A DNA stretch of 64,000 nucleotides from assembly GCA_964344415.1 (NCBI GenBank), contig CAYFMS010000001.1, positions 100,214 through 164,213 of the forward strand, read 5' to 3'. Both the position numbers and the translations under genes were made by a program. The notes below the pieces were generated by a model. The model was not told the DNA's origin, searched no databases, and saw nothing but the letters and a program-made list of their open reading frames with translations. Positions 3,890 through 38,399 of the stretch are shown in pieces. Every line of letters begins with the position of its first letter. The first letter of the stretch is position 1. This DNA is from an uncultured Gammaproteobacteria bacterium (lineage in GTDB: Bacteria > Patescibacteriota > Patescibacteriia > UBA9934).

Positions 3890-5956
3890 TTATTGGCCCA
3901 GAAGTCTTTTCGCACGCTCGATCGTTACCTCCGCGTGCTCTTCAACTTCTCCCTTATCTGCATGCTCTGCAGATTGACCGCTTTCCCCCTCAACGTATTG
4001 TTCTACGCTCGGCGAAAGGTTTGACCAGACCACAAGCATGGCCAGCAATGCTGCCACATAGCCAGCAACCTGCACATCCGTTCGCTTGAGCAGCTTTCCG
4101 GAATAGTGCAGCGCAATCGACGCCGCGATCAGCACAGGGATGTACCACCAATGAAGCCATGTTCCATCGAAGAAACGTTGCACCACTGGGAAGCCCATAA
4201 CAACATGGATGCCGAAGATGAAACCCCAGAAGATAGCATTCGCACCTGCGACCCCCAGGATATTCACTTGGACCTGTTCCATATTTTTGCGCTCAGCCTT
4301 GTCCTTGTACAGTGCTGTCCAGAACCAGCCGGTAAGTTCGGCAGGAATAAGGATTGCACTGACAAGTACGAAGAAGAGAGCCGTATTGCTGCTCCATGCA
4401 TTCAGCTGGAAGTACATCGTCGACACAATCCACAGCCCCACCCACACAACAGTGTTAATGATGCCGCGAATCTTGGAACCAGGTCGCCACCGATAAAGGG
4501 GCGACACAGGTCTATCGATCGGGAACTCGAATCCGCCCAGCTTGCTGAGCTTGCCGATCAGAGATCCCTGTGTCTCGTCCCTCTTTGCCTCGGGTGCTGG
4601 TCCGCCGAGTACATTGAACAGAGGAATGACGATGATTACGAATGGCAACATGGCAAGGTTTCCCATCAACCATAGCAGCAATCCGTATTCCCAACTTTCC
4701 GCGCTCCACTCGAGCAGTGTGCCGAGTGTGTACGGGGCGGCATAGGCAAGCGTCGATGTAATCAATGACGCTCCAAGCAGTCCCGTGACGATCTGCGACG
4801 CAGCTCGTACACCCGGACGCGTTGCACGCCAACGAATCAACATCCCAACACCGAAACCAATGAAGGAAACGATCGGGATGATGGTGCTCGCAGCAACGTA
4901 GAGGTTTGGATATGGCGTTGGGAGCACCGATGTCAGTGCTCCCGTCACCACGTTGACCAGCCCCTCCGCGGCCATACCACCAAGAATACCAACCGCAAAC
5001 GCGACGATACTCAAGGCAATCGCAGCTGCATCTTCGCCGCTGGCGTCGAACCAATCATGCCATCCTTCTCGATCTTCCGGATCGGACAGCGGATCGAGTC
5101 CATCGAAGACCCATGCATATATGCGAGAAGAAATGCCGTATTTCTTCGAACGCTGCCCTGTCGCTTCACATGCATCGACGAAATCGATGAGCCTTCTGTT
5201 GTACAGGCTCATTAAGCGCTGCTTAGAGTCGTCCATGACTCTCCGCTCTTGTGCAGACAGAATGTCCTCACCTTGGCGCTGACCTTCCTCTGCCGATCCC
5301 CGTCTTCTCTCTGCATGTCGATCGCGTAATCGTCGATTCACGCCCTCGATATTGTTGAGGTCACGATGCGCACGATTGACTTCGTCTGCTGTCAGCTCCG
5401 GAAGTCGAGCAATGACTTTCGAGTTCTCTTCCATGGCGGCGGCCACATGTTGCAATGCAGCACGGCATCCACGAATCGGCAGCAAGTCCTGGTCACGAGC
5501 CGACCGCAACATGCGGCGCAGCAAGGCGAGCTCTGTATCCCGATTTGGAAGATCAGGAAGCGGCGGGTCTGGCGGGCTCCTCTCAGCATCGTCAGCCGGA
5601 TCAGAGTCATGCGAGTCCCTCGCCCTTTTGAGGTCGCGTCGGAGCCTGGATGCCCATCGTTCGCGGTCACGCTCATTCGCTTTCACGCGCCAAGCGCGCG
5701 CCACATCTTCGCTGAGCACCTCGAATGCCGAGATGATCACCGGACGGGCCCAAACAGGCACGCGAGGATGACTCCCAATGGTCTCACCAATCAGCTTCAG
5801 GGCGAAGCGATTCATGAATGTGTCCATGACCAGTCCTAAGACTTGCGTGGTCATGTCCATCACCTGCCGCTCTGACAGATCTGCTTCACCAGACGGAAGT
5901 CCAGTGAAGACCTTGTCGGTCAACCAATTGATGACTGTTTCTTTCGTTGGGTTCAT
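3890..5956 (-). CDS. hypothetical polytopic membrane protein: ~300-aa charged/coiled N-terminal cytoplasmic domain plus ~10 C-terminal TM helices; no family recognised
   Basis: 688-aa ORF with SD GGAGG 6 nt upstream. GC ~58% with G/C-ending codons, unlike the host. The N-terminus is Arg/Asp/Glu-rich (RRDLKRARDSHDSDPADDAERSPPDPP). Confidence 0.7.
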   Translation of the reverse strand: MNPTKETVINWLTDKVFTGLPSGEADLSERQVMDMTTQVLGLVMDTFMNRFALKLIGETIGSHPRVPVWARPVIISAFEVLSEDVARAWRVKANERDRERWASRLRRDLKRARDSHDSDPADDAERSPPDPPLPDLPNRDTELALLRRMLRSARDQDLLPIRGCRAALQHVAAAMEENSKVIARLPELTADEVNRAHRDLNNIEGVNRRLRDRHAERRRGSAEEGQRQGEDILSAQERRVMDDSKQRLMSLYNRRLIDFVDACEATGQRSKKYGISSRIYAWVFDGLDPLSDPEDREGWHDWFDASGEDAAAIALSIVAFAVGILGGMAAEGLVNVVTGALTSVLPTPYPNLYVAASTIIPIVSFIGFGVGMLIRWRATRPGVRAASQIVTGLLGASLITSTLAYAAPYTLGTLLEWSAESWEYGLLLWLMGNLAMLPFVIIVIPLFNVLGGPAPEAKRDETQGSLIGKLSKLGGFEFPIDRPVSPLYRWRPGSKIRGIINTVVWVGLWIVSTMYFQLNAWSSNTALFFVLVSAILIPAELTGWFWTALYKDKAERKNMEQVQVNILGVAGANAIFWGFIFGIHVVMGFPVVQRFFDGTWLHWWYIPVLIAASIALHYSGKLLKRTDVQVAGYVAALLAMLVVWSNLSPSVEQYVEGESGQSAEHADKGEVEEHAEVTIERAKRLLGQ

Positions 5957-28539: not shown

Positions 28540-28578
28540 ATGGAGCTTTTGCTCCATTTTTCTTATTATAGGATTACT

Positions 28579-28920
28579 ATGCTTTCAAAAGTGCATCGAC
28601 TTACAAGTGAAAAAGACATTCTAAGGGCTATTCGTAAAGGAAAAAGTGTTTTCGACAATGCTTGCGGTATTCGATTTATAAAAAATAATCTCCCCTATTC
28701 GCGTTTTGCGGTTGTCGTTGGGACAAAAGTAGATAAATCAGCAGTAAAAAGAAATCGGGTAAAGCGGCAATATAGGGAAATTATCCGATTGCATCTTGAT
28801 TCAATTCTGACGGGCTTTGATATTGTCCTTTTGACATCGAAGCCCGCTGCAGAGCTCGACTATAGTGAGAAAGAGCAGAAAATACTGGGCGTATTTAAAA
28901 AAGCGAAGCTATTTCAGTAA
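28579..28920 (+). CDS. rnpA: ribonuclease P protein component
   Basis: RLTSEKDILRAIRKGK...NRVKRQYREI RnpA signature; position after rpmH. Confidence 0.85.
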   Translation: MLSKVHRLTSEKDILRAIRKGKSVFDNACGIRFIKNNLPYSRFAVVVGTKVDKSAVKRNRVKRQYREIIRLHLDSILTGFDIVLLTSKPAAELDYSEKEQKILGVFKKAKLFQ

Positions 28921-33724: not shown

Positions 33725-34141
33725 CTACTTCTTATTGTACAGGATTAATATGGCTATGCCAACAATAATGAGGATATCTGCCAGATTTATCACGGATTGC
33801 CCAACAATAAGGATATAATCCGTCGTAAATCCATGTATGATACGGTCAATATAATTTCCTAATGCGCCAGACAGGATACATAAAAAGGCGAATTTATGCA
33901 TCGGCATGGCCGTTTTGCGCATGCCGTAAATAAGAAGGGCGATAATTATGGTGGATATAGGCAGTAAAATGGCATGAGGGATAAAAATACTGCCCGCAAT
34001 ACCCGGATTCTTATATAAAGAGATGTCGAAAAAGAAGTTAAAAACGCGTTCATGTTCAGTGAGCGCGTTTAATGCGGCTAATTTTAGGGAAAAATCAACA
34101 ATCGCAACTAAAATTGGTACTAGGAAAAGATGTGGAGACAT
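33725..34141 (-). CDS. lspA: lipoprotein signal peptidase II
   Basis: 138 aa with 4 TM helices; NPGIAGS and GNYIDRIIHGFTTDY motifs. Confidence 0.8.
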   Translation of the reverse strand: MSPHLFLVPILVAIVDFSLKLAALNALTEHERVFNFFFDISLYKNPGIAGSIFIPHAILLPISTIIIALLIYGMRKTAMPMHKFAFLCILSGALGNYIDRIIHGFTTDYILIVGQSVINLADILIIVGIAILILYNKK

Positions 34142-34515
34142 TAAAGTTCTTGTGTAAGAGTCTTTTTACTCGCAACTGATGACGTTGATGTTGGTCTTGC
34201 GCGTAATCTCCCCTCTGAAATAGGTTCTCCTGTGTATTTGTCGATACCATATGTACCCTCTTCAATACGGTTCAGGGCATTATTTACGTCGCGCAAGCTT
34301 TTTTCAAGCTCAGATTCCAAAGAAAGGCTGCTCCCATATTCGGCAACTTCCATAGCATTCTCGTCCTCATCATCTCCATAATTTGGAAAGCTGGCATCGT
34401 ATTCTTCGCTAGATTTACCCGTTTTTTTTGCAATTCGCTTCAATGCATCCTCGAGGCGGTCTTTTTCATTGAGTAAAACCTCCTTCATTTCTGCTACAAA
34501 TTCGTCTTTATGCAT
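34141..34515 (-). CDS. DksA/TraR-family protein with a Cys-less (degenerate) zinc finger
   Basis: Coiled-coil N-terminus plus a C-terminal GTYGIDKYTGEPISEGRLRARP that lacks the four Cys. Confidence 0.55.
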   Translation of the reverse strand: MHKDEFVAEMKEVLLNEKDRLEDALKRIAKKTGKSSEEYDASFPNYGDDEDENAMEVAEYGSSLSLESELEKSLRDVNNALNRIEEGTYGIDKYTGEPISEGRLRARPTSTSSVASKKTLTQEL

Positions 34516-34551
34516 ACTTTACTATTATTCGATAAATCAATTCTAATTGAA

Positions 34552-34612
34552 AATAAGAAAAAAAAGAAGAGGGTTCGGCGGACATAGAAGTAAAAAAGTT
34601 CCTTGAACCCTC
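34552..34612 (-). terminator. Rho-independent terminator (minus strand)
   Basis: gagggttc ... gaaccctc 8-bp stem followed on the minus strand by uucuuuuuuuu. Confidence 0.5.
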
Positions 34613-34900
34613 ACGAAAGGCGTGGGACACCGTCCGTGAAGAGTGGGTTTTGGTGAAAAAAACATGTTTTCCTCAAAACTCACTCTTCATTCGGCGTCAA
34701 ACCTTGGCCTTTTAGATGACACCCCACTCTACCCTGCGTTGGTTTTGCTGCCCCCCGTTGCAGCTAACCGAGCCCACTAGAAAGGATAAAAGCATGGACC
34801 GCTAGTAAAGTGGTGAGATATGCCCCGAAACTGCGCAGTTGCAGTGTGGGTTTTCGGGACACCTCCCCCGTGTCATAAACACAGACGAGATTGTTGAAAG
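34613..34900 (-). ncRNA. candidate structured RNA or long structured 3' UTR of unknown class
   Basis: GC ~52% in an AT-rich context. A 15-bp helix (34638-34652 / 34674-34688) plus further helices. No ORF with an SD. Ends at the terminator. Weak similarity to RNase P conserved regions only. Confidence 0.3.
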
Positions 34901-35029
34901 AGCGACTTACATTAATAATTGTATTCAGTTGAACACATATTGTCAACATGTTATAAGTCCTTTAAATAAAGGGCAAAACGCCATATGTGTATAACTTTTT
35001 TATATAAATCCCGCAAAGGCCTCACAGCC

Positions 35030-35066
35030 TGTGGATAAACTGTGTGAGAATTGTTAGTTATCCACA
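35030..35066. promoter_or_regulatory. convergent pair of perfect DnaA boxes away from oriC
   Basis: TGTGGATAA at 35030-35038 and TTATCCACA at 35058-35066. Confidence 0.6.
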
Positions 35067-36136
35067 TTTATACAGAGAATGAGGTCATTTCCTTTAAATT
35101 CTGCCGATTTAATAGGTGTAAAGAATTCCGGCACAAGCGACAGTGATGAAGACAATATGTCGTCAAACACATGATTTTTTCTGACCATCATTGAATGCGG
35201 TCTTGATGTACATTCACCATTTGGCTTGTTTTCGCCAAGTTTTTCTATAATTGCTCTATTTGTGTATTTGTGAAGATCTCCTGTCTTTACGATATTGCCG
35301 GATATATTTCCCTGCTCAAATCCTAAAATGAGTCCATCTTCTATGTTTTCTATACTTGAATGGGTGCTATCTGCATTGGATCGAATTTCTTTAATAGTTG
35401 TCCCATCACTCAATGTCAAGGCTAGCGTAGACAAATTACTGCTTTGTACGGTTTTTTGGAGGAAATTTGCTAAATCTTCATCTGAAAATGCGCCTGTGAA
35501 AAGTATGGAGAAAAACTCATCGTCTTGACCTTGCCCCCATATGAACTGATGAATGGTCGCATTCGGTAGAAAAGACATTGATTTAATGTCAAAGTTAATA
35601 AATGTGTGGATTTCCGTATTTTCAGGGGTGAGATATTGATGAGAATTGGATTTTTGACCAATATTGCTTATTCGTATGCTTTTTTGGTTAAATCGAGCAG
35701 GATAAAAGCCATCTTCATTTGCATAATAGGCTCTTTTTGCTATCAGAAAGGGGTTTCGTTGCTTTTTATAAGGCATAACACTGAATCTCCCCTGACTTGT
35801 TGTTACGCCAATGAGGCTGTTTTCTGAGAAGAAAAGCGATATTTCTCCTCTTGCATTGCGCAAAAGGCTATTTACTGACACGGTTGTCCCATCTATAACG
35901 GTATTTCCGAGTAATTCGTGAATAATGGGTATGCTTCTAGTATGCAGCGGTATTCTGAGATAGCTTTCCGTTCCATCGGGGGCATATTTTGCTGTATTTT
36001 TCGTTCTTTGCAATGCGGTTATAATGATTATTGTGCTAAGAATGGCTAAAATAAGAAAGATAATATTAGAAACAACCCGCCTGGATGGACGGGTTGTTTT
36101 TGTTATATCAATTGATAGAGATTTATGACTTTGCAT
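35054..36136 (-). CDS. hypothetical single-pass membrane protein
   Basis: TM helix IIFLILAILSTIIIITAL followed by a ~300-aa extracytoplasmic domain. Start at ATG 36136. Confidence 0.55.
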   Translation of the reverse strand: MQSHKSLSIDITKTTRPSRRVVSNIIFLILAILSTIIIITALQRTKNTAKYAPDGTESYLRIPLHTRSIPIIHELLGNTVIDGTTVSVNSLLRNARGEISLFFSENSLIGVTTSQGRFSVMPYKKQRNPFLIAKRAYYANEDGFYPARFNQKSIRISNIGQKSNSHQYLTPENTEIHTFINFDIKSMSFLPNATIHQFIWGQGQDDEFFSILFTGAFSDEDLANFLQKTVQSSNLSTLALTLSDGTTIKEIRSNADSTHSSIENIEDGLILGFEQGNISGNIVKTGDLHKYTNRAIIEKLGENKPNGECTSRPHSMMVRKNHVFDDILSSSLSLVPEFFTPIKSAEFKGNDLILCINVDN

Positions 36137-38351
36137 GTGGTTTCTTTCTACCCTGATCTTTCTTTGGTGCAAATGGCTTTCTTGGCGGGGTTTTTTGCGC
36201 TTTGGCTTTCATTTCATCGGTATACACATTGCCTTCTGCCTGTTTCATTGAAAGGCTACATCGGTCTCCTTCTTTCGCGATCACTTTAACCTTCACGCTG
36301 TCGCCCATCTTTACTATATCATCGACTTTTGCAACACGCCACGGTGCAAGTTCTGAGATATGTACCATACCATCACGACCTTTCGCGAAGTCAACAATAG
36401 CTCCAAAGTCCATGATGCGCGACACAGTACCGTCAAATTGCTCTCCAACGGTAATTTCACGTGTTAATTCATTGATCCAATCATAGGCGGCTTGTCCCGA
36501 TGCCTGATCCTTCGATGTAATCATGACAAGTCCATCTGATTCGATGTCGATATTTTCAACACCTGTATCCCCAATAATTTTATTGATGATTTTTCCACCC
36601 GGACCAATAACGTCTCCAATCGATTCTGGATTGATATTCAATTTTAGAATACGCGGCGCATATGGTGATAGCTCTGCTCGTGGCTCAGCGATAATGCGTT
36701 CCATATCATCAAGAATGGTTAAACGTCCATTTCTTGCCTGCTTGAGAGCTTCTACAACTATTTCATGGTTAATTCCATGTGTTTTTGTATCCATCTGAAT
36801 TGCCGTGATTCCATTTCGTGTTCCTGTAACTTTAAAGTCCATTCCACCAGGACCATCTTCAAGGTCCTGAATGTCCGTAATCACTTTCCAAGTGTCCTTA
36901 CCACGTGAAGCAAGGCCGATAGCTACTCCTGCAACGGGAGATGCAATCGGAACGCCCGCATCCATAAGGGCAAGTGTCGATCCGCATGTAGATGCCATAG
37001 AACTTGATCCATTTGAATTCATTGTTTCAGACACGACACGAATGGTGTATGGGAAGTCTTCTTTATCCGGAATCATACTTTCTAGTGCCTTTTCAGCGAG
37101 AGCTCCGTGCCCAATTTCACGCCTTCCAGCTCCTCGAAGTGGCTTTGCTTCTCCGACAGAAAATGGAGGGAAATTATAATGATGCATGTATCGCTTTTCC
37201 CCAACCGTTTCCATATTATCGAGCGTTTGCTGATCTCCTGGCGCTCCAAGCGTACATACAGAAAGTACTTGCGTTTCACCGCGGCCGAAGAATCCAGCGC
37301 CATGAACACGCGGCAATAATCCAACTTCTACAGCGAGCGATCGTACTTCCGTCATTCCGCGACCGTCCAATCGGCGATTCTCTTCTAGAATAAGTCGTGA
37401 CGCCTCATTTTGAACGAAATCATAAATAAGCGACGTAGCGAACCCTATATCGCTCTCTTCCATTTCTTGAGATTCTAAATGATCAACAAGACGCTTCTTG
37501 AGTTCATCTTTTGCATCTGATCGCTCACTTTTTGTCGCGAGCGGTTTTGAGAAGAACAGCTCTTCCATTTGAGATGTCATGAAATTCTCTGCAAGTTCTT
37601 TCACCTCTTTTTGGCGGTCGAGCTTTGCCTGATCTTCCTCTGTTTTTGGTGAGAACAAATCCAGTTTTTCCTTTCCGCATTCTGTTCGAATCGTTTCGAT
37701 GATGTCGAGCACAGGTTTCATTTCGGCTCGTCCTCTCTTGAATGCCTCCGCTATAAGCTCTTCATCTGTTTCATTTGCGCGAGCTTCGATCATGACAACA
37801 TTTTCCATTGTTCCGGCTATATCAAGATCAAATGCTGTATCCTTTCGCTGGCTATATGTTGGATTCACAATCCAATTTCCTTCATTGTGACCGATGCGCA
37901 CAGCTCCGATAGGTCCATTCCAAGGAATATCGCTCATATGAAGCGCGCAAGATGCCCCAATAAGTCCGAGGATATCCGGGTCATGCTCTTCATCAAATGA
38001 GAGTGTTGTCACGATTACCTGAACATCTCGACGCATGCGATTATCAAAGAGCGGTCGTAATGCTCGGTCAATAAAGCGTCCAACAAGAACAGCCTCATCG
38101 CTCGGTCGTCCTTCACGTTTAATAAATCGAGATCCTTTAATGCGACCTGCCGCATAAAGCTTCTCTTCATAGTCCACCATCAGGGGGAACCAGCTCATTC
38201 CGGGGCGCTCGCCACCCATGACGGCAGTAACAAGCACGACGGTTTCACCCATTTGCACTGTCACGGCAGCATTTGCTGCTGGTGCGAATTGTCCGGTAGA
38301 AATGGTTAATTCCTTTCCACCAAATGTACATGTGTATTCTTTCTTTTGCAT
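36123..38351 (-). CDS. pnp: polynucleotide phosphorylase
   Basis: Two RNase PH domains plus KH and S1 domains; start at ATG 38351. Confidence 0.95.
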   Translation of the reverse strand: MQKKEYTCTFGGKELTISTGQFAPAANAAVTVQMGETVVLVTAVMGGERPGMSWFPLMVDYEEKLYAAGRIKGSRFIKREGRPSDEAVLVGRFIDRALRPLFDNRMRRDVQVIVTTLSFDEEHDPDILGLIGASCALHMSDIPWNGPIGAVRIGHNEGNWIVNPTYSQRKDTAFDLDIAGTMENVVMIEARANETDEELIAEAFKRGRAEMKPVLDIIETIRTECGKEKLDLFSPKTEEDQAKLDRQKEVKELAENFMTSQMEELFFSKPLATKSERSDAKDELKKRLVDHLESQEMEESDIGFATSLIYDFVQNEASRLILEENRRLDGRGMTEVRSLAVEVGLLPRVHGAGFFGRGETQVLSVCTLGAPGDQQTLDNMETVGEKRYMHHYNFPPFSVGEAKPLRGAGRREIGHGALAEKALESMIPDKEDFPYTIRVVSETMNSNGSSSMASTCGSTLALMDAGVPIASPVAGVAIGLASRGKDTWKVITDIQDLEDGPGGMDFKVTGTRNGITAIQMDTKTHGINHEIVVEALKQARNGRLTILDDMERIIAEPRAELSPYAPRILKLNINPESIGDVIGPGGKIINKIIGDTGVENIDIESDGLVMITSKDQASGQAAYDWINELTREITVGEQFDGTVSRIMDFGAIVDFAKGRDGMVHISELAPWRVAKVDDIVKMGDSVKVKVIAKEGDRCSLSMKQAEGNVYTDEMKAKAQKTPPRKPFAPKKDQGRKKPHAKS

Positions 38352-38399
38352 AAAATATTCAGCCCAAGGCCTAAGACCTCTCAATGTAGATCTCTTCGT

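Follow-up and report, generated by a model that had tools for sequence, protein, structure and literature searches.

The minus strand at positions 34910-34558 of a 64-kb stretch of DNA (hereafter the window, meaning the whole stretch analysed, which is part of the 768-kb metagenome contig k127_100043; ENA ERZ930061) carries a real, conserved and highly structured non-coding RNA gene of about 350 bases, found in Patescibacteria (Candidate Phyla Radiation, CPR). We judge it rather likely that this is a stand-alone gene for an RNA made with the assistance of Nus factors, and that it represents an uncatalogued family of the Uhrbacteria/Magasanikbacteria group. Large structured RNAs that are confined to one lineage and have a promoter and terminator are a familiar kind of element; the family is new, and literature searches found no earlier description of the RNA.

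The element is housed in a 538-nt gap without a called gene on the public contig, and the neighbouring genes are all on the minus strand. A first-pass annotation, made from the sequence letters, had drawn attention to this stretch as GC-rich, devoid of a credible open reading frame (ORF), structured on the minus strand and closed by a terminator, and all of these observations were borne out. GC content is 0.505-0.52 in 34600-34899 and 0.33-0.41 on both flanks, and only stop-to-stop fragments of 40-61 amino acids overlap the stretch. Folding of the minus strand gives -132 kcal/mol (z = -5.5; none of 100 shuffles did as well), and the plus strand reaches z = -5.1. Since the minus-strand fold is this far from shuffled sequence and its helices covary across species, the structure exceeds chance; an exact terminator stem ends it. 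The element extends slightly past the limits first given, with a start near 34910 and a promoter reaching to 34946, and its features are as follows.

34941-34946, minus strand: -35 hexamer TTGACA of the RNA promoter (promoter scan).
34918-34923, minus strand: -10 hexamer TACAAT of the RNA promoter (promoter scan; predicted start near 34910).
34558-34910, minus strand: predicted primary transcript of about 353 nt, bounded by the promoter and the terminator, with both ends predicted.
34891-34903, minus strand: boxA-like element GCUCUUUCAACAA at the 5' end of the transcript (conservation and consensus match), of putative function.
34868-34885, minus strand: H1, a variable hairpin after boxA (minimum-free-energy fold only; length-variable and absent in many copies).
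34815-34867, minus strand: H2, GGG-AG-GUGUCCCGAAA (34867-34852) paired with UUUCGGGGCAU-AU-CUC (34830-34815) (inverted repeat I6; covariation in alignment A2).
34724-34813, minus strand: H3, a long-range helix of CCACUUUACU (34813-34804) with GGUAGAGUGG (34733-34724), enclosing the central domain.
34741-34769, minus strand: H4, GGUU (34769-34766) with AACC (34744-34741), inner stem GCUGC (34764-34760) with GCAGC (34751-34747), loop AACGGGGG.
34696-34720, minus strand: hairpin GUCA...UGAC between H3 and H5 (minimum-free-energy fold only; homologues have a hairpin of variable sequence here).
34638-34688, minus strand: H5, an irregular hairpin of 18 positions (34688-34671 with 34655-34638) (inverted repeat I1; covariation in alignment A4).
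34558-34612, minus strand: intrinsic terminator, stem 34612-34605 with 34576-34569, 28-nt loop, U-run 34568-34558 (inverted repeat I7).
34540-34545, minus strand: -10-like TAGAAT, likely the separate promoter of the downstream DksA-like gene (the window site is without TG).

Homologues were gathered in two ways. Alignment of the DksA-like protein encoded directly downstream yielded 80 species-level genome loci from related Uhrbacteria and Magasanikbacteria, and nhmmer found the element in 29 of these 80; in every case it immediately preceded the DksA-like gene and shared its strand. For an ascertainment free of dksA, a metagenome collection was scanned with a degenerate DNA pattern drawn from the RNA only (H2 and the start of H3). 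The whole element was present in 39 of the 40 metagenome contigs matched by this pattern, and 33 of the 34 loci with enough flanking DNA had the DksA-like gene directly downstream. Lengths within the family are roughly 320-440 nt, and identity to the window is 46-66% among the 52 distinct full-length copies. Elevated GC relative to the genome is not a family trait, with copies at 0.37-0.52 GC and host loci at 0.38-0.58.

Covariation backs at least four helix systems (H2, H3, H4 and H5), in which 87-93% of alignment cells are paired, compared with 35-53% in controls with slid partners. The first-pass annotation had noted several further helices and named comparative covariation as a check. In alignment A2 (26 sequences, RNAalifold structure of 43 pairs), 93% of cells are paired and 32 pairs have changed on both sides, against 21.3 +/- 2.0 such pairs in shuffled controls (0 of 500 as high) and 13-17 with slid partners; the covariation score is 0.527 versus 0.11-0.155 slid. 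Hand-drawn helices of the central domain (A3, 52 sequences) are paired in 87% of cells, with 21 of 28 pairs changed on both sides and a score of 0.295 versus at most 0.10 slid. For H5 (A4, 52 sequences), 93.2% of cells are paired versus 37-45% slid, 17 of the 19 pairs have changed on both sides and the score is 0.683 versus at most 0.153.

The architecture that emerges is one of conserved blocks interspersed with hairpins of free length and sequence. H2 has 14 pairs, 8 of them changed on both sides, and 96.7% of its cells are paired in A2; its distal insert holds a conserved CCCAC (34850-34846), and a (C)CCCAC motif lies in the distal loop of most copies. H3 is paired in 92.8% (A2) and 88% (A3) of cells, with 9 of 13 pairs changed on both sides, and H4 in 87.9%, with 7 of 10 (A3). 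A strand of about 30 nt rich in A and C (AAAACAAAAACAAAA) links H3 to H4 in most copies; the subgroup to which the window belongs has hairpins instead. The 15-bp helix first proposed at 34638-34652 and 34674-34688, now part of H5, is real, being contained in the arms of I1 (34637-34659 and 34667-34689, 87% complementary), but it consists of 14 pairs and one A-C mismatch. That mismatch sits in the conserved H5 core G-A-G-U / A-C-C-C, where the A is present in 24 of 26 aligned copies and the C in 26 of 26.

Three further tertiary or long-range contacts were tried and rejected. Two of them did not exceed shuffled controls: a kissing loop in which the conserved CCCCAC loop of H2 would meet G-rich loops or linkers, and a pseudoknot joining the distal stem of H2 to the end of the A-rich linker. 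The third, a GACAC/GUGUC pairing of the H1/H2 junction with the segment after H5 showed no compensatory changes in A2 by eye.

Supported pairs include 137 G-U cells and 24 A-C cells, and the sense strand is therefore the strand of dksA. The lengths of the variable inserts are spread over all three residues modulo 3, from which it follows that the element is not coding. A protein-coding reading was thus rejected, with only short stop-to-stop stretches, inserts that are not multiples of three and no gene called. The element contains no tandem repeats and is not a repeat array.

The RNA promoter (TTGACA-17-TACAAT, 34946-34918) is a near-consensus sigma-70 promoter, with 11 of 12 matches in the promoter scan. 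Across the family, 48 of 52 copies have a -10-type TAnnnT at a distance of 6-22 nt ahead of the boxA core, and 34 of these 48 also have a TTG -35-like element. At the other end, the terminator of the window has an exact 8-bp stem, GAGGGUUC (34612-34605) with GAACCCUC (34576-34569), followed by UUCUUUUUUUU (34568-34558); it was missed by a simple terminator scan because its loop is 28 nt. A G+C-rich stem and then a U-rich run close almost all copies, some of which have a plain short hairpin such as GGGGCCUUCGGGCCCC. A promoter for the DksA-like gene had been placed just beyond the RNA by the first-pass annotation, and the family agrees: of 53 distinct copies, 39 carry an extended -10 (TGnTAnnnT) in the interval from the U-run to the start codon. 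By a hand estimate, chance would provide about 0.1 site per sequence, and hence the DksA-like gene very likely has its own promoter.

The most conserved block of the family is its 5' tail, AAGUCG[U/C]UCUUU(C)AACAA, with a core G[C/U]UC[U/C]UU in which G, U, C, U and U are invariant in 26 copies. This core typically starts 13-14 nt after the -10, at about +6 of the predicted transcript and within its first 20 or so nt. The boxA consensus GYTCTTTAANA is the site of NusB and NusE (S10) in rRNA operons and in suhB (PMC5725501). The 5' tail matches this consensus, in an untranslated transcript, and can be assigned to boxA by sequence; the window copy has one extra C. Mutation of positions 4 and 6 inactivates the suhB boxA (PMC5725501), and both positions are invariant in the RNA family. 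In addition, boxA precedes long untranslated arrays of clustered regularly interspaced short palindromic repeats (CRISPR), where it counters Rho (PMC7665894). Of 77 genome loci, 45 have a -10 followed by the boxA core in the zone 300-700 nt upstream of dksA; taken by itself, the core shows a 5-fold enrichment there relative to the rest of the loci. The motif outlasts the RNA body, such that -10 and core are found upstream of dksA also where the body has diverged. In some copies a short hairpin separates the start site from boxA. From its sequence we infer that the boxA-like element is functional.

Many of the loci negative by nhmmer have ORF-free gaps of 400-1500 nt. In 12 of 50 such loci a conserved element of a second type, here called Magasanik-type, was recognized, and others gave weak collinear matches to the hidden Markov model (HMM) of the family. 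The Magasanik-type element is about 300 nt long and occupies the same slot (L024:1-320; L049 and L068, at about 390-90 nt before the dksA match at 4001). It has a promoter, a boxA-like start AGUCGYUCUUU.CACAA and a terminator; its body differs and has a shared central block GAGUCCCGCUAUGCG...GGGACCCAACACCC...GGUGGAYGGGUAUAUGAG. It is probably a diverged homologue of the RNA found in the window.

Known RNA families were sought as the first-pass annotation had proposed (RNase P, transfer-messenger RNA (tmRNA), signal recognition particle (SRP) RNA, 6S RNA and riboswitches), and none was found. Rfam 15 gave no family match at gathering scores in the window, nor at E<=10 on the 851-nt region of the element or the whole window, apart from chance matches of microRNA or small nucleolar RNA models to the H5 hairpin of the 851-nt region. 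There was likewise no family match at the element in 29 homologous loci, nor at E<=10 in 11 homologues; elsewhere in the window and these loci, the Rfam hits were tRNAs. These searches reject SRP RNA, T-box elements and known riboswitches. A tmRNA has a tRNA-like domain (acceptor stem, T arm, 3' CCA) and a tag reading frame; ARAGORN found four tRNAs and no tmRNA in the window, Rfam gave no match, and the element finishes in a terminator stem and U-run, with no CCA conserved there. 6S RNA is a single extended hairpin of about 180 nt with a large central bubble; the element, at about 350 nt, is multi-branched, contains four separate covarying helix systems and has no Rfam match to 6S.

RNase P RNA deserves separate mention, as the first-pass annotation had located the gene for the RNase P protein in the window (rnpA, correctly, at 28540-28920 of the plus strand) and had linked the element, hesitantly, to the RNA partner. 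We consider it extremely improbable that the element is the RNase P RNA of this genome in a strongly diverged CPR form. The size of about 350-400 nt fits, as do a promoter and terminator in the housekeeping style, and searches of the 64-kb window down to E<=10 revealed no RNase P RNA. A GGGGAGG...UCC stretch bears a superficial likeness to conserved region I (CR-I) of type A RNase P RNA. CPR RNase P RNAs can fall under Rfam thresholds; they nevertheless belong to type A, and RF00010 finds them once its thresholds are lowered (PMC8172020), whereas neither RF00010 nor RF00011 matched the 851-nt region or the 11 homologues at E<=10. The P4 pairing of CR-I (GGAAAGUCC) with CR-V (ACAGAA..GGCUUA) was rejected: the CR-I-like GGGAGGUUUYCCGAA pairs locally with UUCGGGAAAC in the covarying hairpin H2, and the alignments have no conserved block of the CR-V type, no P4 pseudoknot and no P1 that would close the ends. 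The stretch formerly likened to CR-II (AGGGUAGAGUGGGG) is the 3' strand of H3 and forms a covarying helix with CACCACUUUACU. The family HMM gave no match to the Escherichia coli M1 RNA even at E<=100 with filters off. The window covers 64 kb of the 768-kb contig, so rnpB can lie elsewhere.

A stand-alone, Nus-assisted RNA gene is the favoured explanation. In the proposed mechanism, the near-consensus sigma-70 promoter would drive the RNA, and the boxA-type element in its first 20 or so nt would load NusB-S10, with NusA and NusG, onto RNA polymerase, as in rRNA operons and CRISPR leaders. Nus loading would keep the long untranslated transcript from Rho and allow it to fold, while it is being made, into at least four helix systems (H2, H3, H4 and H5) with variable hairpins between them. 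Transcription would end at the intrinsic terminator, with the DksA-like gene starting from its own promoter. The RNA is presumably expressed, and its mature form would act in trans, for example bound to protein in a housekeeping or regulatory role. Points in favour of a stand-alone gene are its own strong promoter and terminator, the separate dksA promoter, tolerated insertions between the RNA and dksA, and one locus (L086) in which the RNA is followed by a convergent gene and dksA is lacking.

Other points weigh against it. The 5' and 3' ends of the transcript and its abundance are predictions, and the function of boxA is deduced from sequence. No rRNA gene, and thus no rRNA leader boxA, occurs in the window or in the 124 loci (940 kb in all). 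The genes nusB, nusG, rpsJ and rho were not found in the 940 kb of window and loci, which make up part of the genomes. The position of the RNA, directly upstream of the DksA-like gene in 33 of the 34 independently ascertained loci, is also that of a cis-acting leader; because the whole block is syntenic, this adjacency says little either way.

Such a leader, an attenuator or riboswitch-like element of dksA-lspA that senses a ligand, a protein or the Nus-modified state of polymerase and gates read-through of the terminator, is in our view unlikely but is the alternative with most to be said for it. The RNA shares the strand of the gene and directly precedes it, both in 33 of the 34 pattern-found loci and in every one of the 29 genome loci. 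In most copies 40-90 nt lie between the end of the terminator and the start codon, and a boxA-modified polymerase could in principle alter termination. In a subset of copies (for example L088, L089, L091, L095 and L104), the 5' arm of the terminator can alternatively pair with a segment just upstream, which also counts against a stand-alone gene. Over all copies, an antiterminator test gave a mean best complementarity of 3.9 nt versus 3.4 nt in shuffles, which is not a significant excess, with only 7 of 50 copies at p<=0.1. The extended -10 after the terminator in most copies is something a pure attenuator does not need, the RNA and dksA tolerate separation by insertions of 250-300 nt (L030, L100 and L113), and L086 has the RNA without dksA. 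The synteny of the whole neighbourhood makes adjacency unspecific here too. To our knowledge, 350-440 nt also far exceeds the size of riboswitch aptamers.

Two observations bear on the interval between the RNA and dksA. The insertions, found in three unrelated genomes (approximately L030:3720-3990, L100:1160-1440 and L113:4870-5010), have inverted ends (gcgatctttcgt...acgaaatctc), lie between the RNA terminator and the dksA start, and look like a small non-autonomous mobile element, similar to miniature inverted-repeat transposable elements. Separately, the 9 nt before the dksA start codon (UAGUAAAGU, 34516-34524) are perfectly complementary on the minus strand to the 5' strand of H3 (ACUUUACUA, 34803-34811; inverted repeat I5). 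A pairing of H3 with the ribosome-binding region of dksA was rejected, as such a match is about at chance level in 500 nt and was not seen by eye in the few other loci checked.

The boxA-like start raises another alternative, which we hold to be improbable: a derivative or decoy of an rRNA operon (rrn) leader, that is, a strong promoter, boxA and structured spacer without an rRNA gene, which binds or titrates Nus factors or RNA polymerase, possibly together with the DksA-like protein, in the manner of 6S or Ms1 RNA. The boxA core lies at about +6 behind a near-consensus promoter, and the short hairpin ahead of boxA in some copies can be likened to boxB, the element ahead of boxA in rrn leaders. 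The adjacent gene belongs to the DksA family, and E. coli DksA acts on rRNA promoters. Like 6S and Ms1 (the latter about 300 nt), the element is an abundant-looking stand-alone RNA beside a gene for an RNA polymerase-binding factor; unlike them, it has a multi-domain fold, far from the single rod with central bubble of 6S, no Rfam match, and a link to RNA polymerase by neighbourhood only, the connection with DksA being one of gene order alone. An elaborate covarying body also far exceeds the needs of a boxA decoy. No similarity to rRNA was found: the family HMM did not match E. coli 23S rRNA even at E<=100 with filters off, and none of the loci contains rRNA primer sites. A resemblance to 23S rRNA domain I (UUUCCGAA..., GAAACAUCU...) was discarded as superficial on the same HMM search.

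Compared with known systems, the element resembles at its 5' end the boxA leaders of rRNA operons (rrnTAC), sharing a strong sigma-70 promoter with a G-Y-U-C-U-U-U core and an A-rich tail a few bases behind it, and being long, untranslated and highly structured. Unlike those leaders, it has no following rRNA gene, is about 350 nt and ends in an intrinsic terminator, and its putative boxA has one extra C in the window. It resembles the boxA-led CRISPR leaders in having boxA ahead of a non-rRNA untranslated RNA, for which prevention of Rho termination has been proposed (Stringer et al. 2020, PMC7665894). Unlike CRISPR arrays, it has no tandem repeats, each helix is unique and covarying, and it is much shorter than the arrays where antitermination mattered. 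In general character it is like OLE, GOLLD, ROOL and the raiA motif RNA, which are RNAs of several hundred nt with many covarying helices, variable inserts, a restricted lineage, a conserved neighbourhood and a function that cannot be deduced from sequence. It differs from these in having no Rfam 15 match to any of them and in belonging to a different phylum (Patescibacteria), and we know of no boxA-like 5' end described for OLE, GOLLD, ROOL or raiA. A boxA-like 5' end on a stand-alone non-coding RNA gene is new as well.

Patescibacteria have genomes of less than 1 Mb with very little non-coding DNA. That an untranslated gene of 350-440 nt with a near-consensus promoter has been kept across species whose proteins are about 50-65% identical speaks for an important function. 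Large structured RNAs are seldom newly discovered in bacteria, and past ones proved to be ribozymes or the cores of ribonucleoproteins. A bolder proposal, which we regard as quite conceivable though short of probable, is that the element is the founding member of a Patescibacteria-specific class of large structured RNAs, made in the style of rRNA by boxA-loaded polymerase and with a housekeeping task of its own (ribonucleoprotein scaffold, ribozyme, or regulator of RNA polymerase together with the DksA-like factor). If the boxA assignment is true, a stand-alone non-coding RNA would be a new kind of target for the Nus-factor regulon, beside rRNA, suhB and CRISPR arrays, and rRNA-style antitermination would extend to a stand-alone non-coding RNA gene. 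The alignment can be converted to a covariance model for correct annotation of this gap in CPR genomes, and would also spare those who seek the diverged RNase P RNA of CPR bacteria a false candidate.

The proteins of the window have their closest relatives in Patescibacteria, chiefly Candidatus Uhrbacteria and Candidatus Magasanikbacteria. Many RNA-carrying genomes (L005-L008, L010, L012-L015 and others) are labelled 'uncultured Gammaproteobacteria bacterium'; their genes and synteny are those of Patescibacteria, and the labels look wrong. The block pnp - hypothetical gene - RNA - dksA - lspA - comM is syntenic in every locus, with lspA and then a ComM/Mg-chelatase-like gene beyond the DksA-like gene. 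The flanking genes, and rnpA, are placed as follows.

34141-34515, minus strand: DksA/TraR-superfamily (YteA-like) gene, 124 amino acids, directly downstream of the RNA (a neighbour, which is not shown to be part of the RNA's function).
35054-36172, minus strand: gene for a hypothetical membrane-anchored protein, upstream of the RNA.
36123-38384, minus strand: gene for PNPase (pnp), upstream of the hypothetical gene.
28540-28920, plus strand: rnpA (RNase P protein), with a KRNRVKRQ motif.

The DksA-like protein matches the yteA family (8.2e-19) and dksA (9.6e-12) of NCBIfam, both under the curated cut-offs, and its homologues carry the source names DksA/TraR. In the proteins of this clade (alignment A1), most of the four DksA/TraR zinc-finger cysteines have been lost, with the consensus YGICKYTGEPI...RLRARPTSTS.V.SKK, and the window protein has zero cysteines. 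The hypothetical gene between pnp and the RNA is always present, fast-evolving and marked by an N-terminal transmembrane segment (window 35054-36172; for example L086:2-1276). Its window protein has no Pfam or NCBIfam match, and tblastn finds only one homologue, at 26% identity. In L086 this gene still adjoins the RNA despite the loss of dksA. The hypothetical ORF (start 36172) and the PNPase ORF (stop 36123) overlap by 50 nt in the mechanical ORF list, and the overlap of the called genes on the public contig is 14 nt.

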